A stretch of 64,000 bases of DNA, from assembly GCA_009780345.1 (NCBI GenBank), contig WRAG01000001.1:7267-71266 (forward strand). Reading direction: 5' to 3'. The notes beneath the pieces were generated by a model that did not search any database, was not told the DNA's origin, and saw only the letters and a list, made by a program, of their open reading frames with translations. Position 1 is the first letter of the stretch. Each line of letters opens with the position of its first letter. The stretch is from Oscillospiraceae bacterium. Its GTDB lineage: Bacteria; Bacillota; Clostridia; Monoglobales; WRAG01. Made by a program: the position numbers and the translations under genes. This document shows positions 11,926 to 62,787 of the stretch, one piece after another.

Positions 11926-12452
11926 GTTTTTGCCGCCTGCGGCGGCGGGCTTAAAACTTTTTCAGCGAAGTCGCTGTAGCATTTGCGCTTGTCAGCGCAG
12001 GACGACAAGGGTGTGTTGACACCCTTGTCAAGCCCCAAAAATTTTTTAACAAAAAATTTAGTAAAACTGGCGGCGCAAACGCGCTATGGCGCTATTAAAA
12101 GCGCGCCGCTTATTGAGGACTGCAAACAATATCCTCTCAACGAAGTATCTACGGCGGCAAAAGCCGCATGCTCGACTGAAACGGCGTTTTATCTTGCTAG
12201 TCTTTCCGCGAATGCGGTTCGCTAACCCTGTTTTTTCGTCGCCGGCTTTGGCGTTTGTGTCCATAGGCGACCGGGATTGGCAAGGGCAGAGCCCTTGTCG
12301 CCCGTCCGGCAGGACACACGCCCTCGGGACGGATCCGAAAAAGCACGCGCCCGCAGGCGCAAAAGCCTGCCGTCGCAGCGGCAAAAATGGGTTTTAGGGC
12401 AGCGTCCTACATCCCCGCGCCGTGGCGCAAAAACTAGGCCAAAGCCCTAAAG
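11926..12452 (+). repeat. Family C long composite palindromic repeat, copy C2
   Basis: Colinear with C3 (inverted) and C4 over several hundred nt (…GACAAGGGTGTGTTGACACCCTTGTC…GGCGGCAAAAGCCGC…GGCGACCGGGATTGGCAAGGGCAGAGCCCTTGTCGCC…). Ends in GCCCTAAAGGAGC, which provides the next gene's RBS. Confidence 0.85.
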
Positions 12453-12463
12453 GAGCAAATCAC

Positions 12464-13276
12464 ATGAAAGTATACGCCTTAGTCGGCGCGAGCGGAACCG
12501 GCAAAAGTCATCACAGCATGTTTGCCGCCAAGCAATTGGGCGCGGAATGTATGATTGATGACGGTCTTCTAATCGCCAATCATCAAATTGTCGCGGGAAA
12601 ATCCGCCAAACAAGAGCCGACCAAGATGGCGTCGGTTCGCCGCGCTATATTTTCAAGTCAAACTCACCGTGACGAAGTGCGCCTTGCGATTGAAAAACAT
12701 AAATTTCGGTCTATTCTAATTATCGGAACGTCGGACAGAATGGTTTCGCAAATCGCGAGCGGTATCGGAGTCGGCGAAATTGACGAAATCATCCGAATCG
12801 AAGATATCCGAACCGAAGATGAGATCGAGCGGGCAAAAAATATTAGGTTTAAGCAGGGAAAGCACGTAATTCCCGTTCCAACTTTCGAGGTGAAGAAGCA
12901 TTTTTCGGGATATTTTATGCACCCGCTCGCGATGTTGAGCAAAAACAAATCTACTTATCGAGTGGAAGAAAAAACGGTAATGCGCCCGACTTACAGCTAT
13001 CTCGGGCATTTCGAGATCTCGGATAAGGCGATTATCGACATCTGCGCGTATAAAGCGCGGCAGAATTCGGAAATTACACGAGTTTTAAGGGTTGGCGTCC
13101 ATATGCTCAGCGATAAAAGCGTCGTGATTGACGTTGACGTTGTAATGAAATTTCCGAATAAGATTCATATTGTGGGGCGAGAGCTTGCGGATGTAATCCG
13201 CACCGATGTGGAGGAGCATACTTCCATCAATGTTAGAAAAATCAGAATAAACGTAAAGGGACTGCGGTTTGAGTGA
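12464..13276 (+). CDS. P-loop NTPase fused to a C-terminal Asp23/Gls24-like domain
   Basis: N-terminal Walker A VGASGTGKSH. The C-terminal ~110 aa follow the Asp23 pattern (ISDKAIIDICAYKA...VIDVDVVMKFPNKIHIVGRELADVIRTDVEEHTSINVRKIRINVKGL). Start set at ATG 12464 after AAAGGAGC. Confidence 0.8.
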   Translation: MKVYALVGASGTGKSHHSMFAAKQLGAECMIDDGLLIANHQIVAGKSAKQEPTKMASVRRAIFSSQTHRDEVRLAIEKHKFRSILIIGTSDRMVSQIASGIGVGEIDEIIRIEDIRTEDEIERAKNIRFKQGKHVIPVPTFEVKKHFSGYFMHPLAMLSKNKSTYRVEEKTVMRPTYSYLGHFEISDKAIIDICAYKARQNSEITRVLRVGVHMLSDKSVVIDVDVVMKFPNKIHIVGRELADVIRTDVEEHTSINVRKIRINVKGLRFE

Positions 13277-13390
13277 AATCACGCAATCTTCCGCCGAAAC
13301 TTCGCCTGCAAAAAGTCCTCAACGTATAGCCCATACGCCTGCGGCTTTTCGAGGCTCGTTTCGACGAAATATTACGCAATTTGACACAAA
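13268..13390 (+). repeat. Family A repeat (A1 core), forward
   Basis: TTTGAGTGAAATCACGCAAT...GTCCTCAACGTATAGCCCATACGCCTGCGG...TTACGCAATTTGACACAAA. The left end contains the upstream gene's last codons and its TGA stop. Confidence 0.9.
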
Positions 13391-14278: not shown

Positions 14279-14383
14279 ATTTGCATCAAATTGCGTGAGG
14301 TTTTGCAGAAAACGCACGGGAGCGTGTATATAAGATACCCGACCGGGCGTTTTCGGCGAAAGATTGCGTAATTTCATGCAAAT
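14279..14383 (-). repeat. Family A repeat (A2 core), inverted
   Basis: TTTGCATCAAATTGCGTGAGG...GGGAGCGTGTATATAAGATACCCGACC...TTGCGTAATTTCATGCAAA. Confidence 0.85.
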
Positions 14384-25310: not shown

Positions 25311-25611
25311 TTTGCGTGAAATCACGCAATCTTCCGCCGAAACTTCACCCACGAAAAATCCTCAACGTACCATTTGTACGCCTGCGGAAACAAGACGCCA
25401 TTAAAAGTTTTGTGAAACAAAACATACATAAATGGCGTTTCAACGGCGGTTTTTGCCGTTCTTTTTCGGGGCTCGTTTCGGCGGAATCTGGGAGAGTTGT
25501 CAAAAACTTGTTTTTGCTAACAACTCCCCTGTGAAAACTGCCCAAGAGAGCAAGGCGATTTTTGCCGCCGCTTAATTGGCTGCAGTTGACCACCACGCAA
25601 TTTGACGCAAA
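25311..25611 (+). repeat. Family A repeat, composite (A1 core with nested insertions including module F)
   Basis: Starts TTTGCGTGAAATCACGCAAT directly after the thyA TAG and ends CACGCAATTTGACGCAAA before the folA RBS. The interior carries GGGAGAGTTGTCAAAAACTTGTTTTTGCTAACAACTCCCC, which is also seen at 40426 and 54117. Confidence 0.85.
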
Positions 25612-27710: not shown

Positions 27711-27740
27711 CTTGCGTGAAATCACGCAATTTGACGCAAG
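27711..27740 (+). repeat. Minimal family A unit (both ends, no core)
   Basis: CTTGCGTGAAATCACGCAATTTGACGCAAG is the left end joined directly to the right end. Confidence 0.75.
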
Positions 27741-34627: not shown

Positions 34628-34661
34628 TAAGATGATATTAATAAAAGAGGAGTTTTTAATT

Positions 34662-35204
34662 ATGAGAAAAATATTGATGATTATATTAGCAGTATTTGCA
34701 ATGATGATATTTGTGGGCTGTGGTGGAAATGGCGGAGGACGAGCAAGCGATCTTGGGTTTGGGGAATTTCGTGATACTCAAACGGGTACAACCATGTCCA
34801 TTGGGGATTTAAAATCAGATTTTGAACAAGCGTTTGGCGTAGGGCAATTATATGATTCAGGGCGAACAAGAGATACTTATGAATATTTTGACGGTCTTAT
34901 GCGAGCAACTTTTGAGCGTTCAAGCGGAGAGCTAGTACTTATTCGTTTTTATGCACCGGAAAGGGCTCCGCAAGAGGGCAGATTTGAAATTTTGGACATC
35001 TGGCTTGGTATGACACGGGAAGAGTTGATTGAAGTTGAAGGCACTATGGCTTTCCAACTTGAAACCGCCGGTATGACAGGGCGGAGTATCAGCCCTGAGG
35101 GCGAGATACGTTCTGTAACAGGTCCTCGAAGGAACACATATGGCGCTTTGGCAACGGTTGAAGGCGATTATGTTGTGATGATACAGCTTTCTTGGGAAGA
35201 TTAG
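34662..35204 (+). CDS. Putative lipoprotein
   Basis: MRKILMIILAVFAMMIFVGCGGNGGG has a signal peptide plus lipobox (FVGC). AAGAGGAG RBS. The ORF-track upstream extension was discarded. Confidence 0.75.
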   Translation: MRKILMIILAVFAMMIFVGCGGNGGGRASDLGFGEFRDTQTGTTMSIGDLKSDFEQAFGVGQLYDSGRTRDTYEYFDGLMRATFERSSGELVLIRFYAPERAPQEGRFEILDIWLGMTREELIEVEGTMAFQLETAGMTGRSISPEGEIRSVTGPRRNTYGALATVEGDYVVMIQLSWED

Positions 35205-35232
35205 CATTTAAGCAGTAAGAGGAAATGGGTTT

Positions 35233-36336
35233 ATGCAGATAAAGAGATTATCACTCAAGAGTTTTCGTAACTATGAGAGTGAAGAGTTTGAATTTAATAG
35301 CGGCGTGACCGTGATATATGGAAATAATGCACAGGGCAAGACGAATGTTCTTGAAGCTGTGCATTTATTTTCTATGGGGAAATCTCATCGCACACATAAA
35401 GATAAGGAAATGATTTTGTTCGGCAATGATACCTCGACTGCGGTGCTGGATTTTGTATCGTGCGGGATGGAAAATCGGTCGGAAATTGTGATTAACAAGG
35501 ATGCGCGAAAGCTTATCAAAGTGAATGGGATTTTGATTCCGAAAATCAGCGTTCTTATGGGGCGGTTTAACGTTGTTTTGTTTTGTCCCGAGCATTTGGC
35601 GTTGGTGAAAGACCAGCCGCGCGGGCGGCGGAAGAATTTGGACGCGTTTATCAGTCAGTTGCGTCCGAATTATTTTTCTGCGCTTTTGCAATACCAGAAG
35701 ATTGTCGCGGGGAAGAATATGTTGCTTGGAAAATCAGGGAATTTCGCATTTGACGGCGTACTTGATGTTTGGAACGAGAAGCTTGTGAGCGTTGCGGCGG
35801 AGATTTTGAAGTATCGGCATGAGTATATCAAGCGATTGGAAGTCGTTATGGCGGAGGTTTTGCGGGATATATCCGGTGGAGCGGAAGAATTTTCGATGAA
35901 GTATAACTCTTGCGTCGGTGATATTGACGGCAAGAGTTCGGAGGAGATTCGGGAGCTGCTGTCCGACAAGCTTGCGCGGTCAGCCGGGCGGGAGCGGGAG
36001 TTGCAGAAATGTGTCGTGGGGCCGCATAGGGATGATATTACTTTCTATATTAATGGGAAGGAAGCGAGGGCGTTTGGGTCGCAGGGGCAACAGAAAACGG
36101 TCGCGCTTGCGTTGAAGCTTGCGGAAGTTAGGATTATTCGGGAGGAGATTGGGGAATTTCCGGTGCTTTTGCTTGACGATATTATGAGTGAGTTGGACGG
36201 GAGTCGGCGCGGGTACATATTGAGTGAGATTAGAGATATGCAGGTGATTATCACCGCGACGGACAGAGATATGTTTGAGGGGTTGGGCGAAGATGTTTGC
36301 TACATTAGGGTGGAGAGCGGAAGGGTTGCGGACTAA
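35233..36336 (+). CDS. recF: DNA replication and repair protein RecF
   Basis: GNNAQGKTNVLEA Walker A, the SQGQQKT signature and LLLDDIMSELD Walker B. Confidence 0.95.
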   Translation: MQIKRLSLKSFRNYESEEFEFNSGVTVIYGNNAQGKTNVLEAVHLFSMGKSHRTHKDKEMILFGNDTSTAVLDFVSCGMENRSEIVINKDARKLIKVNGILIPKISVLMGRFNVVLFCPEHLALVKDQPRGRRKNLDAFISQLRPNYFSALLQYQKIVAGKNMLLGKSGNFAFDGVLDVWNEKLVSVAAEILKYRHEYIKRLEVVMAEVLRDISGGAEEFSMKYNSCVGDIDGKSSEEIRELLSDKLARSAGRERELQKCVVGPHRDDITFYINGKEARAFGSQGQQKTVALALKLAEVRIIREEIGEFPVLLLDDIMSELDGSRRGYILSEIRDMQVIITATDRDMFEGLGEDVCYIRVESGRVAD

Positions 36337-36608: not shown

Positions 36609-36749
36609 ATGAAGAGGAAAATATACTTAATAAAATGGATAATACTTCATTTTTGTATGCAGAGAAGCATAAAAATGTCACATTGGTTTGCTGATAAGTT
36701 TTTCAATTTAGTGGAAAAAGAGATGAATTGCCGAAAAACTGTAAAATAA
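36609..36749 (+). CDS. Possible small basic/hydrophobic peptide (46 aa), speculative
   Basis: GAGGTG RBS 5 nt before the ATG. MKRKIYLIKWIILHFCMQRSIKMSHWFADKFFNLVEKEMNCRKTVK. Divergent from the RHH gene. No homology recognised. Confidence 0.3.
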   Translation: MKRKIYLIKWIILHFCMQRSIKMSHWFADKFFNLVEKEMNCRKTVK

Positions 36750-36752
36750 TGC

Positions 36753-36781
36753 TTGACATATGGGGTTAGATGTTGTATACT
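36753..36781 (+). promoter_or_regulatory. Strong sigma-70-type promoter, likely the S10 operon promoter
   Basis: TTGACA (36753-36758), 17-nt spacer, TATACT (36776-36781), about 430 nt upstream of rpsJ. Confidence 0.65.
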
Positions 36782-37210: not shown

Positions 37211-37519
37211 ATGGCGGCAGAAAAAATTAGAATCAGACTTAAATCTTACGATCACAATTTGGTTGATCAATCGGCGGCGAAGATCGTGGATACCGCAACG
37301 AGAACGGGGGCGAAAATTTCGGGTCCTATTCCGTTGCCGACGAAGAAGGAGATTATCACTATCCTTCGCGCGGTGCATAAGTACAAAGACAGCCGTGAGC
37401 AGTTTGAACTGAGAACGCACAAACGTTTGATTGATGTTTTGGGTCCGACGGCGAAAACGATTGACGCGCTGAAGAACTTGGATTTACCGGCGGGCGTTGA
37501 TATTGAAATTAAGATATAA
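37211..37519 (+). CDS. rpsJ: 30S ribosomal protein S10
   Basis: [18 protein letters not shown]...GPIPLPT...[14 protein letters not shown]-like sequence. Confidence 0.98.
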
Positions 37520-37521
37520 AA

Positions 37522-37644
37522 TTTGCGTGAAATCACGCAATCTTTCGTCGAAACTGCAATGACGAAAAATCCTCAACGTATCACATATACGCCTGCGGTT
37601 TTTCGCATCTTGTTTCAACGAAATCTCACGCAATTTGACGCAAA
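37522..37644 (+). repeat. Family A repeat (A1 core), forward
   Basis: Starts 2 nt after the rpsJ TAA. Central hairpin CGTAT-CACAT-ATACG. Ends CACGCAATTTGACGCAAA. Confidence 0.9.
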
Positions 37645-37716
37645 TTTGGGTATATGTGTTGCGTGAAGGTCATGTCGGTGGAATGTGCCGACCAATAACC
37701 GAAAGGAGAAGTATTA

Positions 37717-38349
37717 ATGAAGAAAGCGATTTTAGGTAAGAAAATCGGAATGACGCAGATATTTGGCGAAAACGGCGTGGTAATTCCGATCACTGTTGTT
37801 GAAGCGGGGCCGTGTCCTATCGTTCAAAAGAAAGATATGGAAAAAGACGGTTACGAAAGCGTGCAAATGGCTTTTATGGACAAAAAAGAAAAGCATACCA
37901 CTAAGCCGTTGCAAGGACATTACAAAAAAGCGGGTGTCGGGCTTAAAAGATTTCTAAAAGAATTTAAACTTGACAATTACGCGGATTTGAATGTCGGAGA
38001 CGAAATTAAAGTTGATATATTCGAGGACGGAGAAGTTATTGACGTTACCGGAACCAGCAAAGGTCACGGATTCCAGGGTACGGTTAAGCGTCACGGAACG
38101 CACAGAGGTCCGATGAGTCACGGTTCGCATTATCACAGAGGACCGGGTTCAATGGGCGGATGTTCTACTCCGTCGAGAGTATTTAAAGGTAAAAGGTTGC
38201 CCGGACACATGGGTGTGGATACCGTTACCATTCAAAATTTAGAACTTGTTAAAGTTGATACGGAACGGAACTTGCTTCTTATTAAAGGCGCGGTTCCGGG
38301 ACCTAAGGGCGGACTGGTTGTTGTTCGGAACGCGGTTAAAGGAGGATAA
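37717..38349 (+). CDS. rplC: 50S ribosomal protein L3
   Basis: [12 protein letters not shown]...[11 protein letters not shown]. Confidence 0.98.
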
Positions 38350-38595
38350 TTTGCGTGAAATCACGCAATCTTTCGCAGAAACTGCGAGGACAAAAAGTCC
38401 TCGACGTATAACTCATACGCCTGTGGCTTTTATATGGAGGGCTCCCAAAAAACGAGAGCCATTGCTCGAAATTTTTTGGGAAAGAGGAGCCGCCGCACGC
38501 AAGGCGAAGCTTTTGCCACGATTTTTGTGGCAAAACGAGCAACGAGTGCGAGTGGGGACGATGTTTCGACGAAATCTCACGTAATTTGACGCAAA
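38350..38595 (+). repeat. Family A repeat, composite (A1 core with a nested ~120-bp module E)
   Basis: Starts immediately after the rplC TAA. The insert GGAGGGCTCCCAAAAAACGAG...TTTTTTGGGAAAGAGGAGCC... (from 38437) is related to modules at 45697, 48040, 52305 and 56175. Ends TCACGTAATTTGACGCAAA. Confidence 0.88.
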
Positions 38596-38620
38596 TTTAG
38601 TTTGGAAGGGAGTAATAAAA

Positions 38621-39244
38621 ATGCCTAAAGTACCATTAATGGATAAGACAGGTAAGAACATTGGAGATATTGAGCTTAGCGAAAACGTGTTCGGAGTTGA
38701 CGTTAACACTGATGTAATGCACGAAGTTGTTGTAAACTATCTTGCGAATCAGCGTCAAGGAACACAAAGCACGAAAACGCGCGCGGAAGTTCGAGGCGGC
38801 GGTAAGAAGCCGTGGAGACAAAAAGGTACGGGTCGTGCTCGTCACGGTAGTACTCGTTCTCCGATATGGACAGGCGGTGGCGTAACGTTTGCGCCGAAAC
38901 CGAGAGATTACAGTTATACGGTTAACAAAAAAGTGAAGCGTCTTGCTTTGAAATCGGCGTTGTCAAGTAAAGTTTTGGCTGAGAACGTTATCGTGCTTGA
39001 CGGATTCAAGATGGACGAGATTAAGACGAAAGAAGTTGCTACGGTTTTGAAAAACATGGGAATCGTGGGGAAAGCGTTGATCGTTCTTCCCGAAAACGAC
39101 CAAACAGTCGTGCGCAGCGCGAGAAATATTCGCGGCGTTGACGCTACATTCGTTGGACAGATCAATACTTATGAAGTTTTGAACCATACGAAATGTATCA
39201 TTCTAAAAGACGCGGTGGCTAAGCTTGAGGAGGTGTACGCATAA
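38621..39244 (+). CDS. rplD: 50S ribosomal protein L4
   Basis: [30 protein letters not shown]. Confidence 0.98.
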
Positions 39245-39531
39245 TGAAAACGGCTTATGACATTATTAGAAAGCCTATCATTACCGAGCAGAGTATGGAA
39301 GGCGTTCAAGACAAGAAGTACACGTTCGAAGTTGCGGTTGGCGCAAACAAGATTGAAATTAAAAAGGCGATTGAAGAAATATTTAAGGTGAAAGTTGACA
39401 AAGTTACCACCATGAATATGAAAGGCAAGCCGAAAAGAATGGGAGTTCACGCAGGATTTCGTCCGGATTGGAAGAAAGCAATGGTGAAGTTGACTCCTGA
39501 TAGTAAATCTATCGAATTATTTGAGGGTTAA
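39244..39531 (+). CDS. rplW: 50S ribosomal protein L23
   Basis: [12 protein letters not shown]...[17 protein letters not shown]. Start overlaps the rplD stop. Confidence 0.97.
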
Positions 39532-39557
39532 TATCGAGTTGAAGGGAGAAAGAGCTA

Positions 39558-40391
39558 ATGGCTATTAAAAAGTATAGACCTATTACGCCTTCGTTGCGTC
39601 AGATGACATGTTCGGCTTTTGCTGAGATTGATAAAGTAAAGCCGGAGAAGTCGCTTCTTAGAAAACTTAAGAAGAATGCAGGACGAAACGCGCATGGTAA
39701 AATTACGGTTCGTCACCGCGGAGGCGGCGCGAAACGTAAGTACAGAATTATTGATTTTAAACGTAACAAAGATGGAATGAAAGCAACTGTTTTATCAATC
39801 GAGTATGATCCGAACAGAACGTCTAACATTGCGCTTTTGGAATATCCGGATGGTGAAAGAACATACATCATCGCGCCGGTTGGACTTAAAAAAGGTCATA
39901 TCATTGAGTCGGGCGTGCAAGCCGACATCTTGCCGGGTAACGCGAAAGAGCTTAAAGACATTCCGGTTGGTACGATGATTTACAACATCGAGTTGAAGCC
40001 CGGTAAAGGCGGACAACTTGTTAGATCGGCGGGGAACACGGCGCAGCTTATGGCTCTTGAGGGACTTTACGCGCAAATCAGACTTCCGTCGGGCGAGATG
40101 AGATTGGTTCGAAACAACTGCCGCGCGACAATCGGGCAGGTTGGAAACACCGATCACGAGAACATAAACATCGGTAAAGCGGGACGTAAACGACATATGG
40201 GATGGCGTCCTACCGTTCGTGGTGTTGTTATGAATCCGTGTGATCACCCTCACGGTGGTGGTGAAGGTAAGTCGCCTATCGGACGGCCGAGCCCTGTTAC
40301 TCCTTGGGGTAAGCCGGCGTTGGGATATAAAACGCGGAATAAGAAGAAGCATTCTAGCAAGTATATAGTTAAAGGCAGAAATTCTCGATAA
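39558..40391 (+). CDS. rplB: 50S ribosomal protein L2
   Basis: [14 protein letters not shown]...[18 protein letters not shown]. Confidence 0.98.
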
Positions 40392-40403
40392 TTATTTTCG
40401 TCA

Positions 40404-40792
40404 AATTGGCACATTTTGAATTTTTGGGAGAGTTGTCGAAAACTTGTTTTCGCTAACAGCTCCCCTGCAAGGCTTTCCAAAGAGCATGAGTCGTTTGTTG
40501 ACGAAGTGCGATTTGCTGAAAGCTACTGCCGCCCACTTGCGTACTTTGTGTACGCGGCGTGGCAGGGCGCGCAAAAGCGGCGCGGCTTTAAATGAGACTT
40601 GGCTTTGCTGATTTTTGCAAAGTCATAGCCGAATTATGCAGGGGCGTAACATTTTGTAAAACAAAATGCACAGCCATCTGCCAAAATTCAAACTGCACGC
40701 AATTTGACGAAAATATGAGATTTGGTTTCACGCAATTTGACGCAAATTTTAGGAATTTGACAAAAATGTGGAATTTGGGTTTATGCAATTGA
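40404..40792 (+). repeat. Family B repeat, large composite (B core with nested modules F and G, plus extra A-type right-end half-sites)
   Basis: AATTGGCACATTTTGAATTTTT, then module F (GGGAGAGTTGTCGAAAAC...), CCCACTTGCGTACTTTGTGTACGCGGCGTGG, then module G (TTTAAATGAGACTTGGC...), AAAATTCAAACTGCACGCAATTTGACGAAAA, TCACGCAATTTGACGCAAA. Confidence 0.88.
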
Positions 40793-40829
40793 GAAGTATA
40801 GAAGTATAATGGAAAGAGAGGTAAACTTT

Positions 40830-41111
40830 ATGGGACGTAGTGTTAAAAAAGGACCTTTTATTGAAGAAAGTTTGATGAAAAAGATAGTTGCGCAAAATGC
40901 GGCGGGGACGAAGAACGTTATCAAGTCTTGGTCGCGCGCGTCTACTATATTCCCTGAAATGGTTGGACATACAATCGCGATTCATGACGGACGTAAGCAT
41001 GTTCCTGTTTATGTGAGCGAGGATATGGTTGGACATAAACTTGGTGAGTTCGCGCCGACCAGAACATATCGTGGTCATTCGGGATCGAAAACGTCAAACA
41101 CCGGTAAATAA
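40830..41111 (+). CDS. rpsS: 30S ribosomal protein S19
   Basis: [15 protein letters not shown]...[15 protein letters not shown]. Start at ATG 40830 after GAGAGG. Confidence 0.97.
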
Positions 41112-41115
41112 CCGG

Positions 41116-41238
41116 TTTGCGTGAAATCACGCAATCTTTCGCCGAAACTTCACCTGCGAAAAATCCTCAACGTATAACCCATACGCCTGCGGTTTTTCGA
41201 GACTTGTTTCGCCGAAATCTTACGCAATTTGACGCAAA
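41116..41238 (+). repeat. Family A repeat (A1 core), forward, near-consensus copy
   Basis: TTTGCGTGAAATCACGCAATCTTTCGCCGAAAC...AATCCTCAACGTATAACCCATACGCCTGCGG...GTTTCGCCGAAATCTTACGCAATTTGACGCAAA. Confidence 0.92.
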
Positions 41239-41289
41239 CCGTGTTTGTGTCTTGAATAAAATGTATTTTACAAAATAGAGGTGAAAGTT

Positions 41290-41628
41290 ATGGAAGCTAA
41301 GGCAAAAGTTACACATATTCGTATTGCGCCGCGAAAAGTTCGAATTGTTATCGACCTTATTCGCAACAAGCCGGTCGGGCACGCCATTGCGATATTGAAA
41401 AATACGCCGAAAGTGGCAAGTCCTGTTGTGGAAAAGCTTTTGAATTCCGCAATCGCTAACGCGCAAAACAATCATAACATGAATGTAGACAACTTGTACA
41501 TTTCACAAGTTTATGCAGATCAAGGGCCGACCTTGAAGCGGATTATTCCGCGGGCGAAAGGTATGGCTAACAGAATCCAAAAGAAGACCAGCCATATTAC
41601 GTTGGTGCTTGCGGAAAGGGAGGTTTAA
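41290..41628 (+). CDS. rplV: 50S ribosomal protein L22
   Basis: [25 protein letters not shown]. Confidence 0.97.
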
Positions 41629-41631
41629 AGC

Positions 41632-42429
41632 ATGGGACAAAAAGTGCATCCTCACGGACTTAGAGTCGGAGTTATCAAAGGCTGGGACTCACGCTGGATT
41701 GCGTCGGACAGCGACTTTGGCGATAATATCGTGGAAGATTACAATATTCGCAAAATGCTGAAGAAAAAGCTTTACGCTGCCGGTGTTGCTAAGATTGAAA
41801 TTGAAAAAGCGGCGGGGAAAATCCGTTTGTTTATTCATGCGGCGAAACCGGGTATCATTATCGGTAAAGGCGGAACCGAGATTGAAAAAATCAAGCAATC
41901 GGTTGAAAAGCTTACTGGCAAAAGCGTTGCTTTGAACATCGTTGATGTTAAAGTTGCGGATATGAACGCGCAACTTGTTGCGGAAAATATCGCGGCGCAG
42001 CTTGAAAAACGTATTTCGTTCCGTAAAGCTATGAAGCAATCTATGGGACGTACCATGAAAATGGGCGCGAGAGGGATTAAAACGCAAGTTTCAGGACGTT
42101 TGGGCGGCGCGGAAATCGCGAGATCTGAGCATTATCACGAAGGAACTATTCCGCTTCAAACTTTGCGAGCGGATATTGACTATGGATTCGCGGAAGCGGA
42201 TACAACTTACGGAAAAATCGGCGTTAAAGTTTGGATTTACAAAGGCGAAATATTGCCGGAGGGCAAAAGAGGCGTGGATTTGAATAAACCTATCCCGCAA
42301 CCGACCGCTCCGCCAAGACCGCCGAGACCTGCTCGTCCTGCGGGAGATCGTCCTGCACGACCTGCCGGAAACAGACCTGCGGGCAATCGTCCGCCGAGAA
42401 AACCCTCCACGGAAGGAGGAAACAGATAA
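41632..42429 (+). CDS. rpsC: 30S ribosomal protein S3 (with Pro/Arg-rich C-terminal tail)
   Basis: [13 protein letters not shown]... KH domain. Tail is [46 protein letters not shown]. Confidence 0.97.
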
Positions 42430-43049
42430 TGTTATTACCAAAAAGAGTGAAACGCAGAAGAGTTATGCGTGGCAAAATGAAAGGCAAAGCGCAACGCGGC
42501 ACGAAAATCGCTTACGGTGATTTCGGTCTTGTGGCGACTACGCCGGCTTGGGTTAGAAGTAACCAAATAGAAGCGGCGCGTATCGCGATGACTCGTTATA
42601 TCAAGCGTGGCGGTAAAGTTTGGATTAAAATTTTCCCGGATAAGCCGGTTACCGAAAAGCCTGCTGAAACCCGTATGGGTAGCGGTAAAGGTTCGCCTGA
42701 GTATTGGGTAGCGGTTGTTAAACCCGGACGCGTGCTTTTTGAGATTTCAGGGGTGCCGGAAGACACTGCTCGCGAAGCTATGAGACGCGGAATGCACAAA
42801 CTTCCGCTTAAATGTAAGTTTGTCACCCGCGCCGAGCAAGAGAAAGAAGCGGAACTTGAAAAAGCGGCGGAGGCGGCAAAAGCGGCTCCTAAAAAGCCTG
42901 CCGAAACTAAAGCTAAAAAAGCGGCGGCTCCTAAAAAAGCCGCGAAAAAAGAAGAAGCGGTTGAAGTTGCCGAAATTAAAGTTGATGTTGCCGAAGAGGT
43001 TGTTGAAAAAGCGGCTGACGTTGGCGGTAAGGAGGGCGGCGAAGAATGA
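42429..43049 (+). CDS. rplP: 50S ribosomal protein L16 (with ~65-aa Lys/Ala/Glu-rich C-terminal extension)
   Basis: [19 protein letters not shown]...[24 protein letters not shown]. At 206 aa it is longer than the usual ~140-145 aa. Confidence 0.95.
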
Positions 43050-43252
43050 AAATAAGAGATATTCGTGATATGACATCAAATGAGTTGACCGGAAAATTGA
43101 AAGAGTTAAAAGAAGAAATGTTTAATCTTCGGTTCCAAAACGCGACGAATCAATTGGAAAATCCGATGAGAATTGCTGTCGTTAGGAAAGATATTGCGAA
43201 GGTTATGACTGTACTAAAAGAGCAGGAGCTCGGACTAAGGGTGGAGGGATAA
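43046..43252 (+). CDS. rpmC: 50S ribosomal protein L29
   Basis: [32 protein letters not shown] overlap with rplP. Confidence 0.97.
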
Positions 43253-43256
43253 TATT

Positions 43257-43523
43257 ATGACTGAAACTATGCAAAGAAATTATCGTAAAACCCGTACGGG
43301 CAAGGTTGTAAGCGATAAAATGGACAAAACCATCGTTGTTGCTATTGAAAACCGGGTAAAGCACGGACTTTACGGTAAAATCGTAAAAAGAACATACAAA
43401 CTTAAAGCCCATGACGAGCAAAATACTTGCGGCGTAGGTGATACGGTTAAAGTTATGGAATGCCGTCCGTTATCTCGGGATAAAAGATGGCGTTTGGTTG
43501 AAGTAGTAGAAAAAGCGAAGTAA
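43257..43523 (+). CDS. rpsQ: 30S ribosomal protein S17
   Basis: [22 protein letters not shown]...[29 protein letters not shown]. Confidence 0.97.
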
Positions 43524-43524
43524 A

Positions 43525-43645
43525 CTTGTAAATTTTCCGCTATTTTTTCCGAAACTGCAAGACAGAAAATGCTCAACGTATAACCCATACGCCTGTGCTT
43601 TTCCGCTTTTGTTTCGAAAATCTAGCAAAAAATTTACTGCGTTTA
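43525..43645 (+). repeat. Family A repeat (A1 core), decayed ends
   Basis: Core AATGCTCAACGTATAACCCATACGCCTGTGC is retained. The ends have degenerated (CTTGTAAATTTTCCGCTA / TAGCAAAAAATTTACTGCG). Confidence 0.7.
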
Positions 43646-43674
43646 TTCATTGAAGGATAGGAGGCTGGAACGTT

Positions 43675-44043
43675 ATGGTACAGCAACAGTCAATTTTAAA
43701 GATTGCCGATAATAGCGGAGCGAAAGAAATTATGTGTATCCGTGTTTTGGGCGGTTCGGTTCGACGATATGGCAATGTTGGCGACGTTATTGTTGCGTCG
43801 GTTAAGAAAGCCGCGCCGGGCGGAGGAGTTAAAAAAGGTGAAGTTATCAGAGCCGTTATCGTGCGCACCGTTAAAGGTGTTAAGCGAAAAGATGGTTCGG
43901 TTATTAAATTTGACGAAAACGCGGCGGTTATTATCAGAGAAGATAAAAACCCGAGAGGTACGCGTATATTCGGACCTGTGGCACGTGAGTTAAGAGACAA
44001 GGAGTATATGAAAATTATATCCTTGGCGCCTGAGGTTTTATAA
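43675..44043 (+). CDS. rplN: 50S ribosomal protein L14
   Basis: [28 protein letters not shown]. Confidence 0.98.
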
Positions 44044-44045
44044 AA

Positions 44046-44244
44046 TTTTGGCACATTTCGGATTTTTCGCCCACTTGCGTACTTTATGTACGCGGCGTGG
44101 CAGGGCACACAAAAGCGGTGTGGCTTTAAATGAGACTTGACTTTGTTGGATTTTGCAAAGTCATAGCCGAATTATGCAGGGGCGTAACATTTTGTAAAAC
44201 AAAATGCACAGCCATCTGCCAAAATCCAAACTGTACTCAAAATT
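44046..44244 (+). repeat. Family B repeat with nested module G
   Basis: TTTTGGCACATTTCGGATTTTTCGCCCACTTGCGTACTTTATGTACGCGGCGTGG, then module G (near-identical to 40583-40682), then AAAATCCAAACTGTACTCAAAAT. Confidence 0.88.
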
Positions 44245-44279
44245 TTATAAAACAAATTAGTGGTTTAGGAGGAAAAAAC

Positions 44280-44609
44280 ATGGCTATAGCAAAGATGCAT
44301 GTTAAAAGCGGGGACAATGTTATTGTTCTCTCGGGCAAGGATAAAGGCAAAAAAGGCAAAGTTCTTGCGGTTATGCCGGAAAAACGCATGGTTATTGTTG
44401 AAGGCGTTAGTGTGGCAAGCAAGCACAAAAAGCCTCGCAAACAAGGTGAGGTTGGCGGAATCATTAAACAAGAAACGCCGATTTACGCTTGCAAAGTTAT
44501 GAATATTTGTTCTAAATGCTCTTCGCCGGCGAGAGTCGGACGCAAAATCCTGAACGACGGAGAACACGTTCGATATTGTAAGAAGTGCGGAGAAACTTTC
44601 AGTAAGTAA
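44280..44609 (+). CDS. rplX: 50S ribosomal protein L24
   Basis: MHVKSGDNVIVLSGKDKGKKGKVL KOW motif. Start at ATG 44280 after AGGAGG. The ORF-track extension lies in the repeat. Confidence 0.96.
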   Translation: MAIAKMHVKSGDNVIVLSGKDKGKKGKVLAVMPEKRMVIVEGVSVASKHKKPRKQGEVGGIIKQETPIYACKVMNICSKCSSPARVGRKILNDGEHVRYCKKCGETFSK

Positions 44610-44628
44610 GACGCATCTGAAATTTTAG

Positions 44629-44729
44629 TTTGTGTCAAATTGCGTGAGATTTCGGCGAAAACGCAAGGAGCGTGTATACAGATACCCGACGAAGCGGTTT
44701 CGGCGGAAGGTCGCGTAATTTCACGCAAA
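44629..44729 (-). repeat. Family A repeat (A2 core), inverted
   Basis: TTTGTGTCAAATTGCGTGAGAT...GGAGCGTGTATACAGATACCCGAC...CGCGTAATTTCACGCAAA. Confidence 0.88.
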
Positions 44730-44756
44730 CCCTATAATAAAGAGGTGAATTGAACA

Positions 44757-45293
44757 ATGAGATTGCAAGAGAAATATAAAAGCGAAGTTGCGCCGGCGAT
44801 AATGAAAAAATTTGGATATAAAAGCGTTATGCAAATTCCGAAGCTTGAAAAAGTCGTTATCAACATGGGCGTAGGGGACGCGAAAGATAATGCTAAAGCA
44901 ATTGAAAGCGCCGTTGCGGACTTGGCGGCAATTACCGGACAAAAGCCTGTTATCACTAGGGCGAAAAAGTCGGTTGCGACGTTTAAAGTTCGTGAAGGCA
45001 TGAACATTGGTTGCAAAGTTACTTTGCGCGGAGAGATGATGTACGATTTTGTGCAACGGCTGTTTAACGCTGCTTTGCCGCGCGTGCGTGACTTCCGCGG
45101 AATCAGCGCGGACGCTTTTGACGGACGCGGTAACTATTCTATGGGAATTAAAGAGCAGTTGATTTTCCCGGAGATATCTTATGATAAGATTGATAAAATC
45201 AGAGGTATGGATATTATATTCGTTACCACAGCTAATACGGACGAAGAGGCGAAAGAGTTGTTAACTCTTATGGGAGCACCGTTTAAGAGCTAA
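44757..45293 (+). CDS. rplE: 50S ribosomal protein L5
   Basis: [40 protein letters not shown]. Confidence 0.98.
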
Positions 45294-45302
45294 TTTATTT
45301 TT

Positions 45303-45405
45303 AATTGGCACATTTTGAATTTTTCGCCCCCTTGCGTACCTATGTACGCGGCAGGGCAAGGCGCGCAAAAGCCGCGCGGCGCCAAAATCCAAACTGCGCT
45401 CAATT
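45303..45405 (+). repeat. Family B repeat, short form, forward
   Basis: AATTGGCACATTTTGAATTTTTCGCCCCCTTGCGTACCTATGTACGCGGCAGGG...GCGCGCAAAAGCCGCGCGGCGCCAAAATCCAAACTGCGCTCAATT. Confidence 0.88.
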
Positions 45406-45463
45406 AAAAATAAATTATGAAAATTATGTTTTTAATTAGCAAGGAAGGAGTGGTTGTTAGACT

Positions 45464-45649
45464 ATGGCAAAATTAGCGATGAAATTAAAGCAGCAAAGAC
45501 CGCAAAAATATTCTACGCGTGAGTACAATCGCTGCAAAATTTGCGGCAGACCGCACGCGTATTTGAGAAAGTTCGGAATATGCCGTATATGTTTTAGAGA
45601 ACTTGCGTATCGCGGGTATATACCCGGCGTTAAAAAAGCAAGCTGGTAA
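45464..45649 (+). CDS. rpsN: 30S ribosomal protein S14, short zinc-ribbon (type Z) form
   Basis: 61 aa. [23 protein letters not shown]. Confidence 0.97.
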
Positions 45650-45881
45650 TTTGCGTGAAACTACGCACATTTTGGATTTTTCGCTCCCTTGCGTGCAAGG
45701 GCTCCCGCAAAGTCGGTTTGTGACTTTGTGGGAAAAAGGAGCAACAGCGCAATATGCGAAATTTTCGGACGGTTTTTGTCCGAAAACGAGTAAGGTGGAG
45801 CTTGTTGTGACGGCGGCGGGACACAGCGCGCCCAAAATCGGCGCGGCATCAAAATCCAAACTGCACGCAGTTTAACACAAA
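45650..45881 (+). repeat. Long family B variant framed by family A-type ends (B ends plus module E core)
   Basis: Starts directly after the rpsN TAA with TTTGCGTGAAACTACGCA fused to CATTTTGGATTTTT. The core is ...CAAGGGCTCCCGCAAAG...GGGAAAAAGGAGCAAC... It ends AAAATCCAAACTGCACGCAGTTTAACACAAA. Confidence 0.88.
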
Positions 45882-45946
45882 TTAAATTATGGAGGCAAGT
45901 GGCTAATCGAAAAGTCAAACTGCCTTTTAGAAGGAGGAAACTATAA

Positions 45947-46345
45947 ATGCAAATAACAGATCCAATTGCGGATATGCTTACCAGGATACGGAACGCAAAC
46001 ACGGAGAGACACGAAAAAGTAAGTATTCCTGCATCGAACATGAAAAAATCGATTGCGAATATCCTTTTGAAAGAAGGATATATCAAAAATGTTGAAACTG
46101 CTGACGACGGCGGACAAGGTGTTATCAAACTTACCTTGAAATACGGCGCGGATAAGCAAAAAGTTTTGACGGGCTTGAAAAGAGTTAGCAAACCGGGTCT
46201 TAGAGTTTACGCGGCGAAAGATGAGTTGCCGCGCGTTCTTAAAGGACTTGGAATCGCTATTATATCTACATCTAAAGGGATTATGACTGATAAAGAAGCG
46301 AGAAAAGAGAATGTTGGCGGAGAAGTATTAGCTTTCATTTGGTAG
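45947..46345 (+). CDS. rpsH: 30S ribosomal protein S8
   Basis: [18 protein letters not shown]. Confidence 0.98.
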
Positions 46346-46352
46346 GACCAGG

Positions 46353-46545
46353 GAAATTAGATTAAAAAGTTGGGCGAATACGCAAAATTAGGTCAGATTT
46401 TGTGAAACACGAGCGTCGCTGTATAAATATACAGCAGTCGAAGTGTTTCACAAAAAACAAAAATGCAAAATCTAATGGCTTGCAAAGCAAGCCTACCCGA
46501 AATATAAATGCTTTGCATTTTTGTGGTGTGACCAATTTTGAGGAT
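46353..46545. repeat. Structured intergenic element (A2-like hairpin core plus conserved block D)
   Basis: Hairpin GTGAAACACGAGCGTCGCTGTATAAATATACAGCAGTCGAAGTGTTTCAC, hairpin GGCTTGCAAAGCAAGCC, and the 35-nt block AAATGCTTTGCATTTTTGTGGTGTGACCAATTTTG (46506-46540), which is identical to 56400-56434. Confidence 0.75.
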
Positions 46546-46571
46546 TCGTAATATAAGGAGGATAAGAAATT

Positions 46572-47117
46572 ATGTCCAGGATAGGTAGAAAACCTATTGA
46601 AGTACCGGCGGGCGTTGATGTTACTATTGGCGCGGGTAATGAAATTACCACAAAAGGGCCGCTTGGAACTTTAAATATGACAATGCATACCGATATGGTT
46701 ATCAAAAAAGACGGGAATGTAATCACGGTTGAACGACCAAGCGAGAACAAAATGCACAAATCGTTGCATGGCTTGACTCGTACATTGGTTTCGAACATGG
46801 TGGAAGGCGTTTCCGCAGGGTACAAAAAAGAACTTGAAATTAACGGCGTAGGTTACAGAGCGGCGTTACAAGGTAGCACGCTTGTTTTGAACTTGGGATA
46901 TTCACATCCGGTTGAGATGGAAGCGCCCGAAGGAATTAAAATCGAAGTGCCTAGCAATACCCAAATTATTATTTCGGGTATTAACAAACAGATGGTTGGC
47001 GAGTTCGCTGCGAAAGTCAGAGAAAAACGCCCGCCTGAGCCTTACAAAGGTAAGGGAATAAAATATACAACTGAGAGAATTAGACGTAAAGAAGGAAAGG
47101 CAGGTGCGAAGAAATGA
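46572..47117 (+). CDS. rplF: 50S ribosomal protein L6
   Basis: [17 protein letters not shown]. Confidence 0.98.
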
Positions 47118-47476
47118 TTAAAAAGCAGAGCAGTAATATATCGCGCCTTGCGCGGCATCAAAGAGTTCGCAAAAAAATCAGCGGAACGCCTGAATGTCCC
47201 AGACTTTGCGTTTTCAGAAGCTTGTCTCACATTTATGCGCAAGTGATTGACGATGTAAGCGGCAAAACGCTTGTTTCCGCGTCTACATTGGATGCTGATT
47301 TAAAAGGCAGCTATGGCGGCAACAAAGACGCGGCGAAAAAAGTGGGATTAAGTATAGCGAAAAAGGCAACCGACGCGGGAATCAAAGATGTTGTGTTTGA
47401 CCGCGGCGGATATGTATATCATGGGCGGGTTGCTGAATTAGCGGCCGGCGCGCGCGAAGGAGGTTTGAATTTCTAA
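47114..47476 (+). CDS. rplR: 50S ribosomal protein L18
   Basis: [34 protein letters not shown]. Confidence 0.97.
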
Positions 47477-47994
47477 TGGCTGAAAAAGGTGAAAGAACCA
47501 GAAAACAGGAGCGCGTTGACGCTTCGGTGCTTGATATAAAAGAAAAAGTGGTATCTCTTAACCGCGTTGCGAAGGTTGTTAAAGGTGGACGAACTTTTAG
47601 GTTCAGCGCGCTTGTGGTTGTTGGCGACGAGAACGGACATGTGGGATTCGGAAGCGGAAAGGCCGCTGAAATTCCGGAGGCGATTCGCAAAGGGATTGAA
47701 GACGCGAAGAAAAACATGATTACCGTGCCGATTGTGAACACTACTATACCTCACGAGGTTATTGGCGTTTACGGCGCGGGCAAAGTTCTTCTTAAACCGG
47801 CGGCGGAAGGTACCGGCGTTATCGCCGGCGGCGCGGCGCGTGCGGTACTTGAGCTTAGCGGAATTCGCGATATTCGTACGAAATGTTTGCGCAGTAATAA
47901 TCCGCGCAACGTTGTCGCGGCGACTATCGAAGGATTGGCGAGTTTGAAAAGTTTGGAAGAAGTTGAAAAGCTTAGAGGTATCAAGTTATCATAA
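47476..47994 (+). CDS. rpsE: 30S ribosomal protein S5
   Basis: [27 protein letters not shown]. Confidence 0.98.
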
Positions 47995-47995
47995 G

Positions 47996-48561: not shown

Positions 48562-48582
48562 GCAAGATTAGGAGAGATTGAT

Positions 48583-50444: not shown

Positions 50445-50567
50445 TTTGCGTGAAATCACGCAATCTTTTGTCGAAATTACGTGGTCGGAAAATCCTCAAC
50501 GTATAACCCATACGCCTGCGGTTTTCCGCCACTTATTTCAACAAAATCTCACGCGATTTGACGCAAA
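50445..50567 (+). repeat. Family A repeat (A1 core), forward
   Basis: TTTGCGTGAAATCACGCAAT...AATCCTCAACGTATAACCCATACGCCTGCGG...TCACGCGATTTGACGCAAA. Confidence 0.9.
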
Positions 50568-52726: not shown

Positions 52727-52845
52727 AATTTGCAACGAATAAATTTGTAAAAGAATGCGTGCATTGCGGTGAAAATCGTGAGGAAGCGTGTATAAATATA
52801 CCCGACTGAGGGATTTTCGCCGCAAGGTGCGTATTCTCTTACAAA
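52727..52845 (-). repeat. Family A repeat (A2 core), inverted, degenerate ends
   Basis: Core GAGGAAGCGTGTATAAATATACCCGACTGAGGG is flanked by GCGGTGAAAATC / GATTTTCGCCGC arms. Confidence 0.65.
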
Positions 52846-52868
52846 TAGTAATATAGGAGGAAAATTTA

Positions 52869-53093: not shown

Positions 53094-53122
53094 TTTGCGT
53101 CAAATTGTATAATTTCATGCAA
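53094..53122 (-). repeat. Minimal family A unit (both ends, no core), inverted
   Basis: TTTGCGTCAAATTGTATAATTTCATGCAAA is the mirror of the 27711 minimal unit. Confidence 0.65.
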
Positions 53123-53145
53123 ATGTTATGGAAGGAGGAGAATTT

Positions 53146-54342: not shown

Positions 54343-54464
54343 TTTGCGTCAAATTGCGTGAGATTTCGTTGAAACAAGAGTCGGAAAACCGCAGGCGTAC
54401 ATCAAGTACGTTGAGGATTTTGCGGCTCGCAGGTTCGGCGAAAGGTTGCGTGATTTCACGCAAA
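54343..54464 (-). repeat. Family A repeat (A1 core), inverted
   Basis: TTTGCGTCAAATTGCGTGAGAT...CCGCAGGCGTACATCAAGTACGTTGAGGATT...TTGCGTGATTTCACGCAAA. Confidence 0.9.
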
Positions 54465-54486
54465 TGCTGAGAAAGGAGAGATAACT

Positions 54487-61753: not shown

Positions 61754-62668
61754 CTACGTTAAAAAGAAATTTGCGATTATGGCAAATGTTCCGACAGCCC
61801 AGCAATAGTACGCAAAATAATGGAATTTTCCTTTATCGATCAGCCTTAGCATATATTTGATTGCAATTATTCCCGAAATTGCCGCGGCGATTATGCCTGC
61901 TATGTAAGCGGCGGGGGAAAGAGCAAGCGCGTTGGTTATCATAGTGTCGGCGGCATAACCGCTCAACGTACTTAACGGGTCGGAGATTACGATGTATTCT
62001 GCCGCGCGTTCTTCAATTACGCCGGGAATTTGAACGACGGTCGCGCCAAGTATGGCAAGTATCGACATTAGGAACGAAAACTTTGCCGCGAATTTGCGGG
62101 TGAAGCCGGTTGCCTCGCCTGCGACAATGGTTGAGCCGGAGCGGGAAATTCCGGGGATTACAGCGAACATTTGCACAAATCCCACGAACAATGCTGAGCG
62201 GAACTTTGCGTTGCTTGCGTCTTTTCGACCTTGCGGAATTTTGACCGATAGGAATAGAAATGTTCCGGTAACGAGAAGAGCGATTCCGACAATTAATAAG
62301 CTTTGGAACAGGCGGTCTATCACACCAACAAACGGAACCATCAAAAACATCGGAAGCGTTGCGATAATCAGCATGATCAACATTCGTCGATATGGCTTAC
62401 CTTCGATTGGGTTTTTCTTTCTTTTGATTAAGTCGCGGATTAGGCCGAAAAATTCTACGACCAATTCTTTGATATCTTTAAAGAATATAATGAAAACCGA
62501 TACCAAAGTTCCTATATGAAGCAGCGTATCGAAAAACAGGCCGCCCGCGTATGTGCCTTGAAATCCGAACACCTCTCTGAAAATTACCAGATGCCCCGAA
62601 CTGCTGACCGGCAAAAATTCGGTAAGACCTTGAATTATGCCGAGAAAAATCGAAAATAATATATCCAT
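61754..62668 (-). CDS. uppP: Undecaprenyl-diphosphate phosphatase
   Basis: IIQGLTEFLPVSSSGHL and PGISRSGSTI motifs. Confidence 0.93.
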   Translation of the reverse strand: MDILFSIFLGIIQGLTEFLPVSSSGHLVIFREVFGFQGTYAGGLFFDTLLHIGTLVSVFIIFFKDIKELVVEFFGLIRDLIKRKKNPIEGKPYRRMLIMLIIATLPMFLMVPFVGVIDRLFQSLLIVGIALLVTGTFLFLSVKIPQGRKDASNAKFRSALFVGFVQMFAVIPGISRSGSTIVAGEATGFTRKFAAKFSFLMSILAILGATVVQIPGVIEERAAEYIVISDPLSTLSGYAADTMITNALALSPAAYIAGIIAAAISGIIAIKYMLRLIDKGKFHYFAYYCWAVGTFAIIANFFLT

Positions 62669-62684: not shown

Positions 62685-62787
62685 TTTGCGTGAAATTACG
62701 CAATCTTCCGCCGAAAACGCTCGTTCGGGTATCATTTATACACGCTCCCTCCCGTTTTCGCCGAAATATCACGCAATTTGCCGCAAA
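62685..62787 (+). repeat. Family A repeat (A2 core), forward
   Basis: TTTGCGTGAAATTACGCAAT...CGTTCGGGTATCATTTATACACGCTCCC...TCACGCAATTTGCCGCAAA. Confidence 0.88.

Follow-up and report, generated by a model that had tools for sequence, protein, structure and literature searches.

The 64,000-nucleotide stretch of contig WRAG01000001.1 analysed in this study (hereafter the window) derives from an uncultured Clostridia/Eubacteriales bacterium and holds housekeeping genes. Judged by the ribosomal proteins S3 and L3, its closest named relatives are unclassified Clostridia, metagenome-assembled genomes of Oscillospiraceae/Ruminococcaceae, and Ructibacterium (~72-78% identity). The S10-spc-alpha ribosomal-protein operon extends over positions 37211-56805 on the + strand in the canonical gene order (19.6 kb). 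Spacers in this operon, e.g., the one between rpsS (40809-41111) and rplV (41290-41628), carry copies of a short palindromic repeat that is referred to here as family A. An earlier description made from the letters of the window (hereafter the sequence-only reading) had listed 15 copies of this repeat as ~123-bp elements, and had offered two explanations for it, namely, I) a non-autonomous mobile element of the miniature inverted-repeat transposable element (MITE) or palindrome-associated transposable element (PATE) kind, or II) a structure-selected RNA or single-stranded DNA (ssDNA) module. All 15 sites were found to be family members, comprising nine copies with one type of core (A1), four with a second type (A2), and two that consist of ends only. 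The list needed correction in several places: the sites at 27711 and 53094 are 30-bp end-only forms, those at 25311 and 38350 are interrupted A1 copies, those at 43525 and 52727 have an A1 or A2 core but different ends, and the copy at 54343 is reversed. Likewise, the A2 core is present at all four positions assigned to it (14280, 44629, 52735, and 62685), three of which (14280, 44629, and 52735) are reversed relative to the ends. The family A features of the window are the following.

41116..41238, + strand: focal A1 copy in the rpsS-rplV spacer; 136.7 bits; 91% to 13265-13393
41113-41241: the focal unit including its outer complementary triplets CGG/CCG
13268..13390, + strand: A1 copy
25311..25611 (301 bp), + strand: A1 copy in the thyA-folA spacer, with two repeats nested in it, the first following CCTGCGG and the second at AATCT^; an orthologous copy is present in L071
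37058..37180, + strand: A1 copy in the rpsJ leader
37522..37644, + strand: A1 copy in the rpsJ-rplC spacer
38350..38595 (246 bp), + strand: A1 copy between rplC and rplD that another repeat interrupts
43525..43640, + strand: A1 core and arms with different ends (CTTGTAAATTTTCCGC...) in the rpsQ-rplN spacer
50445..50567, + strand: A1 copy in the secY-adk spacer
54343..54465, - strand: A1 copy between rpsK and rpsD, reversed
14280..14382, - strand: A2 copy with the same ends and arms and the core AGCGTGTATA...ATACCCGAC on the mRNA strand
44629..44729, - strand: A2 copy in the rplX-rplE spacer
52727..52850, - strand: A2 core with different ends (TTTGTAAAAGAATGCG...)
62685..62787, + strand: A2 copy upstream of the minus-strand gene 61754..62668, with its core orientation matching transcription
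27711..27740, + strand: end-only copy, CTTGCGTGAAAT[CACGCAAT]TTGACGCAAG, with the two ends fused at the 8-nt direct repeat
53094..53123, - strand: end-only copy just 5' of rpsM
40727..40746, + strand: solitary A-type right end (CACGCAATTTGACGCAAA) after a family B element
45651..45892, + strand: chimera in which a family B body bears an A-type left end (TTGCGTGAAACTACGCAC)

The left end TTGCGTGAAATCACGCAA (allowing up to 3 mismatches) matches the window 23 times versus 0.15 expected, a count reached by 0 of 100 shuffles. A covariance model built from 11 copies recovers those at E = 10^-17 to 10^-35; A2, interrupted, and end-only forms are recovered with lower scores, and nothing further is found in the window. 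All copies lie in transcribed spacers, between a stop codon and the next Shine-Dalgarno site. Their spread is uneven, as 8 of the 15 A copies are in the 19.6-kb ribosomal-protein operon and none in 16 kb of flanks (L111:1-8668 and L114:15382-22665; the L numbers denote contigs or loci compared with the window). At 13268 the TGA stop of the upstream open reading frame (ORF) 12422..13276, which has an Asp23-like C-terminus, lies within the left end of the A1 copy, and the insertion has therefore reshaped the 3' end of this gene. The sequence of the window recurs at 99.9-100% identity in the independent public assemblies L092, L093, and L001, so the repeats are not assembly artefacts; several contigs of these assemblies terminate inside a repeat. 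More generally, assemblies of the lineage (L001, L093, L092, L107, and the P0121/P0122 contigs) break in or beside repeats, with ~1-kb contigs around rplC.

Family A elements are built as concentric layers. The element is shorter than 200 bp, contains no ORF, and has terminal inverted repeats (TIRs) that agree at ~15 of 19 positions; the left end is palindromic, as the sequence-only reading had noted, and takes the form of an 18-bp perfect palindrome, TTGCGTGAAATCACGCAA. The unit is somewhat longer than the 123 bp first assigned to it: the 3 nt outside TTT...AAA vary yet are complementary to each other (38 of 57 matches vs 21.2 expected, p<0.0002), and because of this the real unit measures ~129 bp, with the termini NNN-TTTGCG...CGCAAA-N'N'N'. 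The outermost shell reads TTTGCGTGAAAT[CACGCAAT]...[CACGCAAT]TTGACGCAAA. The 8-mer in brackets recurs in direct orientation, and it is exactly at this repeat, CACGCAAT, that the two ends of the end-only copies are joined. The next arms inward are CTTyCGCCGAAAC and GTTTCGnCGAAAT. Inside these lies a stem of 3-5 bp that is free in sequence and retains its complementarity (GTGG/CCAC, ATG/CAT, GCCT/AGGC, CCC/GGG, GAG/CTC, GCCCC/GGGGC), followed by an A/T stem and by the conserved core T-CC-T-CA-A-CGTAY-loop-RTACG-CC-TG-C-GG. In the window, 15 instances of the apical hairpin CGTAY-N3-7-RTACG are present vs 0.98 expected, i.e., nine in A1, five in the sister family B, and one in a reversed B element. 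The apical stems quoted by the sequence-only reading are exact, namely, CGTAT-AACCC-ATACG in most copies, CGTAT-CACAT-ATACG (37577), CGTAC-CATTT-GTACG (25366), and, on the element strand, CGTAC-TTGAT-GTACG (54396). The flanking blocks CCTCAA and CCTGCGG, which were taken to be constant, are so in general, with single changes at 38350 and 43525. Similarly, the view of conserved ends with exchangeable cores captures half of the picture, since the A1 core sits between other ends too (43525, and in L096). The predicted fold of the focal copy is rod-like on both strands, with -37.4 kcal/mol (z = -5.1) on the + strand and -53.1 kcal/mol (z = -6.8) on the - strand.

The covariation claimed for the hairpin was assessed over a rod of 49 pairs in the 11 canonical A1 copies, with 500 shuffles as the reference. 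Changes on both sides were present in 12 of the 49 pairs (30 cells), and the covariation score was 0.131 vs 0.051 for the shuffled alignments, none of which (0/500) reached it; sliding the pairing partners abolishes the signal. In a wider alignment (A5), to which two alternative-ended copies, one A2 copy, and one copy from another organism were added, double changes rise to 31 of 49 pairs, with 0/500 shuffles on all five measures. The compensatory changes thus have statistical support, and the lack of significant covariation that the sequence-only reading named as refuting its proposal does not occur. The pairing is also strongly asymmetric between strands. Standard pairing accounts for 87.9% of cells on the strand that the sequence-only reading took as the element strand vs 98.1% on the complement, and the non-Watson-Crick cells on the element strand comprise 56 A·C/C·A in 13 columns vs 1 G·T in 1 column (binomial p = 0.002 when counted by column, 0.012 on the ten polymorphic columns alone). 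The predicted RNA fold is 12-26 kcal/mol stabler for the complement strand in 11 of 11 A1 and 6 of 7 A2 copies, and the seventh A2 copy (L062) differs by 4.5 kcal/mol in the same direction. Because nearly all non-Watson-Crick cells are A·C on one strand and hence G·T or G·U on the other, it appears that one particular strand must fold alone; passage between G-C and A-T pairs by way of G·T/G·U on a single strand is the signature of selection for that strand to fold in single-stranded form. In + oriented A1 copies this bias would run opposite to what cytosine deamination on the leading strand predicts, given the positive GC skew of the region. Between the two explanations first offered, a structure-selected ssDNA or RNA module is thus the better one, the wobble pattern being strongly strand-specific.

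The orientation of the copies relative to their flanking genes is biased as well. A1 is in sense in 11 of 13 independent copies (p = 0.022), the antisense exceptions being 54343 and a copy in L089 between ssb and rpsR. The ends of A2 are always reversed (7/7, p = 0.016), including the copy at 62685 beside minus-strand genes. As a result of these opposite biases, the A1 mRNA is the poorly folding strand and the A2 mRNA is the well-folding strand. An alignment of the A1 and A2 cores was slightly better in mRNA-sense orientation (p about 0.02-0.07). The 16 kb of flanks give no further copies and no minus-strand contexts, and the bias may stem from replication or from transcription. One explanation is that the elements are structured RNA modules selected by the host, i.e., intercistronic mRNA hairpins (processing sites, 5' stabilisers, or protein-binding motifs) that tune expression, with their spread being secondary. 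Every copy lies in a transcribed spacer from stop codon to Shine-Dalgarno site, the orientation is biased with respect to transcription even for the A2 copy by minus-strand genes, the pairing pattern tolerates G·U, and the core has invariant internal-loop nucleotides, which are found again in other organisms together with different stems. Solo palindromes that lie 5-20 nt before Shine-Dalgarno sites, or directly behind promoters, also fit such a role, and ERIC elements are known to alter mRNA stability in an orientation-dependent manner (PMC2229807). However, the A1 mRNA is in 11 of 13 copies the poorly folding strand, with 13 A·C columns, the same spacers are element-free in close relatives, the neighbouring genes are functionally unrelated, and copies are interrupted by other repeats without apparent harm. 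Rfam holds no corresponding family (0 matches at the gathering threshold; at E up to 1 the sole match on a copy was to the long-hairpin family MIR7533, and spurious). We therefore regard a primarily host-selected RNA module as an unlikely explanation. Two simpler roles in expression were considered and rejected: intrinsic terminator-like sites number 26 vs 25.0 expected, with only the left-end hairpin having a weak TCTTT tail, and an outward promoter (TTGACG in the right end) found no support.

Orthologous spacers of close relatives, retrieved via exact-protein look-ups, are variously empty, filled, or filled by another family, which bears out the presence/absence polymorphism that a mobile element leads one to expect. 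Between rpsS and rplV, the focal A1 copy of the window corresponds in L094 (S3 96% identical) to a family B element, after which come the same right end and flank (TACGCAATTTGACGCAAACCGAGTTTGTGTCTTG); the spacer of L096 (87%) measures 31 bp and contains no repeat. The rpsQ-rplN spacer contains the alternative-ended A1 copy in the window and in L096, and none in L094 and L098; its junctions read TTCAGA|GTTTGTT when empty vs TTCAAA[element]GTTTGAT when filled, with nothing duplicated. Both the rpsJ leader and the rplC-rplD spacer hold an element in the window; relatives lack it, namely, L105/L106 at the former site and L107 at the latter. In the empty rplC-rplD allele, the Shine-Dalgarno site of rplD lies inside the end of rplC, and the filled allele has a second Shine-Dalgarno site after the element. 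The rplX-rplE spacer, with A2 at 44629 in the window, holds another repeat in L094 and is empty in L096. The family has thus moved recently, and copies have been gained, lost, and swapped between essential genes at a divergence at which ribosomal proteins are still 85-96% identical.

The manner of insertion speaks to the proposal of a classical MITE, i.e., a deletion derivative of an insertion sequence (IS) with a DDE transposase, moved by cut-and-paste through its TIRs. The length of 123 bp, the lack of an ORF, the TIRs, and the existence of several families with similar termini (A, B, and the chimera at 45651) are all in keeping with it. Target-site duplications (TSDs), on the other hand, are missing: no direct repeats were found at offsets 0-6 (k=2-5) in 18 copies, nor at the clean filled/empty junction, and the apparent duplications AAATTT and CCGG are outward extensions of the palindrome. 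The elements also have no TA termini (criteria of PMC2229807), a hypervariable complementary stem with strand-specific wobble is unexpected if TIRs are recognised as double strands, and no parent IS was found in the window or the loci. The MITE proposal of the sequence-only reading is consequently set aside as distinctly improbable. Its PATE alternative fares no better, as there is no conserved target tetranucleotide and no Y1 transposase was found. It had been stated that the window contains no transposase, and Pfam scans of its 34 non-ribosomal ORFs indeed gave housekeeping genes only. When the six-frame ORFs of every locus were searched by phmmer with two Y1 transposases, IS608 TnpA and the RAYT of E. 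coli, a match was obtained only in an unrelated contig (L047). No pair of ends encloses an ORF in the window or the loci; the ORF between two inverted A1 copies in L089, which at first resembles a REPtron, is ssb between rpsF and rpsR. Comparison by blastn with plasmids and phages gave no match, and the literature gave none for the element sequences or the sample identifiers.

Outside the window, the palindrome of the left end is also found by itself. In unrelated sediment contigs, the bare TTGCGTGAAATCACGCAA lies between the promoter -10 and the Shine-Dalgarno site of paralogous genes (L044:101 and 3174; L069:143 and 3548; L037:3060; L067:3272), and in the clade contigs L048, L061, L081, L084, and L088 it stands alone 5-20 nt upstream of start sites. 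In sequence, this solitary form looks like an operator or a 5' stabiliser hairpin. The possibility that the ends are transcription-factor operators, or that the whole units are recombination sites such as integron attC, was thus also considered. The perfect palindrome TTGCGTGAAATCACGCAA, solitary between promoter and Shine-Dalgarno site in unrelated contigs and in clade contig L081, suits an operator, and the length of ~123 bp and imperfect symmetry recall chromosomal attC sites. For the copies of the window, an operator is nevertheless rejected because they sit inside conserved operons rather than at promoters and are polymorphic between relatives; in addition, it would leave a structured body of 100 bp unaccounted for. 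As for attC, its R''/R' consensus RYYYAAC/GTTRRRY is absent from the sequence, no integrase is nearby, and the flanking genes are those of the conserved S10-spc-alpha operon. Operators or recombination sites are accordingly a highly improbable explanation of the elements, with the operator idea keeping its place for the bare 18-bp palindromes of other contigs.

Taken together, we favour, with a probability of roughly 60%, the view that family A consists of non-autonomous palindromic intergenic repeats, closest to REPINs and ERIC, that spread via a strand-specific single-stranded intermediate. Propagation would be carried by a single-stranded hairpin, most likely of DNA, on which an enzyme encoded elsewhere in the genome would act in trans; insertion takes place without target duplication, and the elements would be passively co-transcribed with the operons of the host. 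In the simplest reading, the asymmetry of the shell may be intrinsic to propagation, and orientation may be filtered later through effects of the core on expression.

Several points weigh against this view. No mobilising enzyme (transposase, integrase, or Y1) was found in the window, 16 kb of flanks, and ~80 kb of clade contigs. No simple replication-strand or RNA model explains why the well-folding strand is antisense in A1 and sense in A2. The wider alignment A5 was fitted to the model and leans towards it. The sample comprises ~25 copies, and copies related by descent inflate the cell counts. As regards the kinship with REPINs, the core is more conserved across organisms than the ends, which is the opposite of the REPIN pattern. 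Furthermore, a 5' GT[AG]G tetranucleotide marks the hairpin foot of REP sequences (PMC6006769), and neither the A ends (TTTGCGTGAAAT...) nor the core has GTAG/GTGG at the stem foot.

Family A does not stand alone in the window. The termini of family B (TTTGCnnGAAATTGGCACA...CAATTTGACGAAAA) resemble those of A, and its hairpin, CGTAC-loop-GTACG, is the same; this family occupies other ribosomal-protein spacers, often with extra cargo hairpins (up to 265 bp), and both L094 and L096 have an empty site between L14 and L24. At fixed points, A1 and B elements contain members of a third family, GGGAGAGTTGTC...GTTGACC (~115 bp). Their positions are as follows.

40395-40720, 44037-44262, 45294-45412, 47996-48260, 53517-53640, 54087-54307, and 56130-56360: family B
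10670-10764 and 49021-49115: reversed short forms of family B
25489-25582, 40425-40518, and 54117-54210, and L082:5815-5937: third family

The third family enters at AATCT^ in the right arm of the window copy 25311 and in the left arm of the copy in L082, with no duplication, and also at GAATTTTT^ in B elements, where no nucleotides are duplicated either. Other repeats are nested in A1 copies at fixed points as well, so that A1 serves as a landing site for repeats of the same superfamily. A bolder reading, which we put forward tentatively and judge to be improbable at present, is that these families form a so far undescribed "Russian-doll" superfamily of hairpin transposons in Clostridia. The apical hairpin CCTCAA-CGTAY-loop-RTACG-CCTGCGG, which is shared by A1, B, and contigs of other organisms, would be its recognition module; the mover would be a strand-specific enzyme working on single-stranded DNA or templated by RNA, neither RAYT nor DDE, and insertion without duplication into the centres or arms of hairpins would build up the concentric spacers.

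True copies of family A were found only in contigs of three related metagenomes (Ga0123355_*, Ga0123352, and Ga0136643), the matches in other metagenomes being bare palindromes. A left-end scan of representative genomes, among which the host species was not included, gave 24 single chance matches in unrelated phyla, and one of these, in L007, proved to be just a terminator-like hairpin. In viral contigs, the right end gave chance matches only and the A2 core was not found; the A1 core is present in L104, L108, and L110. The IMG/VR contig L104 has it twice, in ~119-nt rods that the whole model scores at 56-61 bits though the arms differ, and the cores of L108 and L110 have the lower stems AACCGC/GCGGTT and AGTCGTC/GATGACT. 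Both A1-like rods of L104 (L104:113-2748) are located upstream of RHS/YD-type toxin C-terminal cassettes (…YYGARYLDPKYSRWLSGDP…). In L110, a human-microbiome IMG/VR contig (327-4926), a large serine recombinase gene precedes the A1-type core by 66 bp, and a reverse transcriptase gene as well as a truncated GH94 gene lie beside the core. This region may be the edge of an integrated element, which is a lead and not evidence.

Further observations concern the surroundings of the copies. A promoter-like block is duplicated at 36740-36779 and 58257-58296; within the former, TTGACA-17-TATACT at 36753 is likely the promoter of the S10 operon, which places the A1 copy at 37058 in the 5' leader of rpsJ. 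A sub-threshold match to the Rfam family Alpha_RBS at 53091-53178 (27.3 bits vs a gathering score of 38, E = 0.0087) overlaps the end-only copy 5' of rpsM and is probably due to chance. The genes dnaN (31432) and recF (35233) are found without an adjacent dnaA (window 31116-36336), gene orientation flips at ~31.2 kb, and GC skew is positive from 4 kb on. Two repeat pairs unrelated to the above are located at 486-539/12265-12318 and 11981-12129/24032-24176, one of them an exact duplication of 54 nt at a distance of 11.8 kb.

The repeats have thus invaded the operon that is most conserved in the cell: ~8 A copies and as many of a sister family stretch it to 19.6 kb, and they turn over between close relatives. 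Their strand-specific wobble, hypervariable "barcode" stem, and concentric nesting make the copying mechanism and its substrate strand tractable. On the practical side, the repeats break metagenome assemblies at ribosomal marker genes, which matters for lineage binning and phylogenomics, and they could be used as strain-typing markers.

Among known systems, family A may be compared with REPINs, ERIC/IRU, BIMEs and BOX, the Correia/NEMIS, RUP, and bcr1 elements, and PATE and the IS200/IS605 family. The rod-like fold maintained by covariation has a parallel in bcr1, which shows compensatory changes. In this group as a whole (Correia/NEMIS and RUP after PMC2229807), the elements are likewise non-coding and 100-160 bp long, with TIRs, rod-like transcripts, and co-transcription, but they have TSDs (TA or TTTAT), and RUP a known parent IS, neither of which applies to A elements. 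BIMEs and BOX also reuse modules, with the same ends around different cores and the reverse; unlike theirs, the modules of family A are nested concentrically and not concatenated. PATE and IS200/IS605 (background in PMC6006769) share the absence of TSDs, the dependence on hairpins, and a strand-specific single-strand mechanism; they differ in that A has no conserved 5' target tetranucleotide, forms a single long hairpin instead of separate left- and right-end hairpins, and has no TnpA that was found. ERIC is a 127-bp imperfect palindrome that has been listed with TA termini and a TSD (PMC2229807, Table 1). A elements have neither and show no sequence similarity to it. They do resemble ERIC/IRU in size, in the imperfect palindrome, in their location in transcribed intergenic regions within operons, in lengthening through insertions at fixed internal sites and shortening through internal deletions, in the importance of orientation for the fate of the mRNA, and in that no mobilising enzyme is known for either; ERIC/IRU elements were reportedly also described by Wilson and Sharp in 2006. 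REPINs, which are mobilised by RAYT/TnpA_REP (PMC3116915, PMC6006769), have conserved inverted ends, a spacer whose hairpin is preserved by compensatory changes, and singlet remnants (PMC3116915). Like them, family A is extragenic, multi-copy, and ~100 nt long, with two conserved inverted ends, each resembling a short palindrome, and between them a spacer of lower conservation in which compensatory changes maintain the long hairpin; it also has singlets, lacks a TSD, and presumably folds as ssDNA. Unlike them, it has no RAYT that was found, is hosted by Clostridia and not by a proteobacterium, has the central hairpin as its most conserved part, and contains elements that nest. Membership of family A in the RAYT-REP system, or in a TSD-forming MITE family, is not demonstrated. 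Much work has been devoted to REP/REPIN/ERIC-like repeats in Proteobacteria and very little to such repeats in Clostridia; the cognate enzyme of family A, if identified, would represent a means of mobilisation beyond the RAYT and DDE paradigms.

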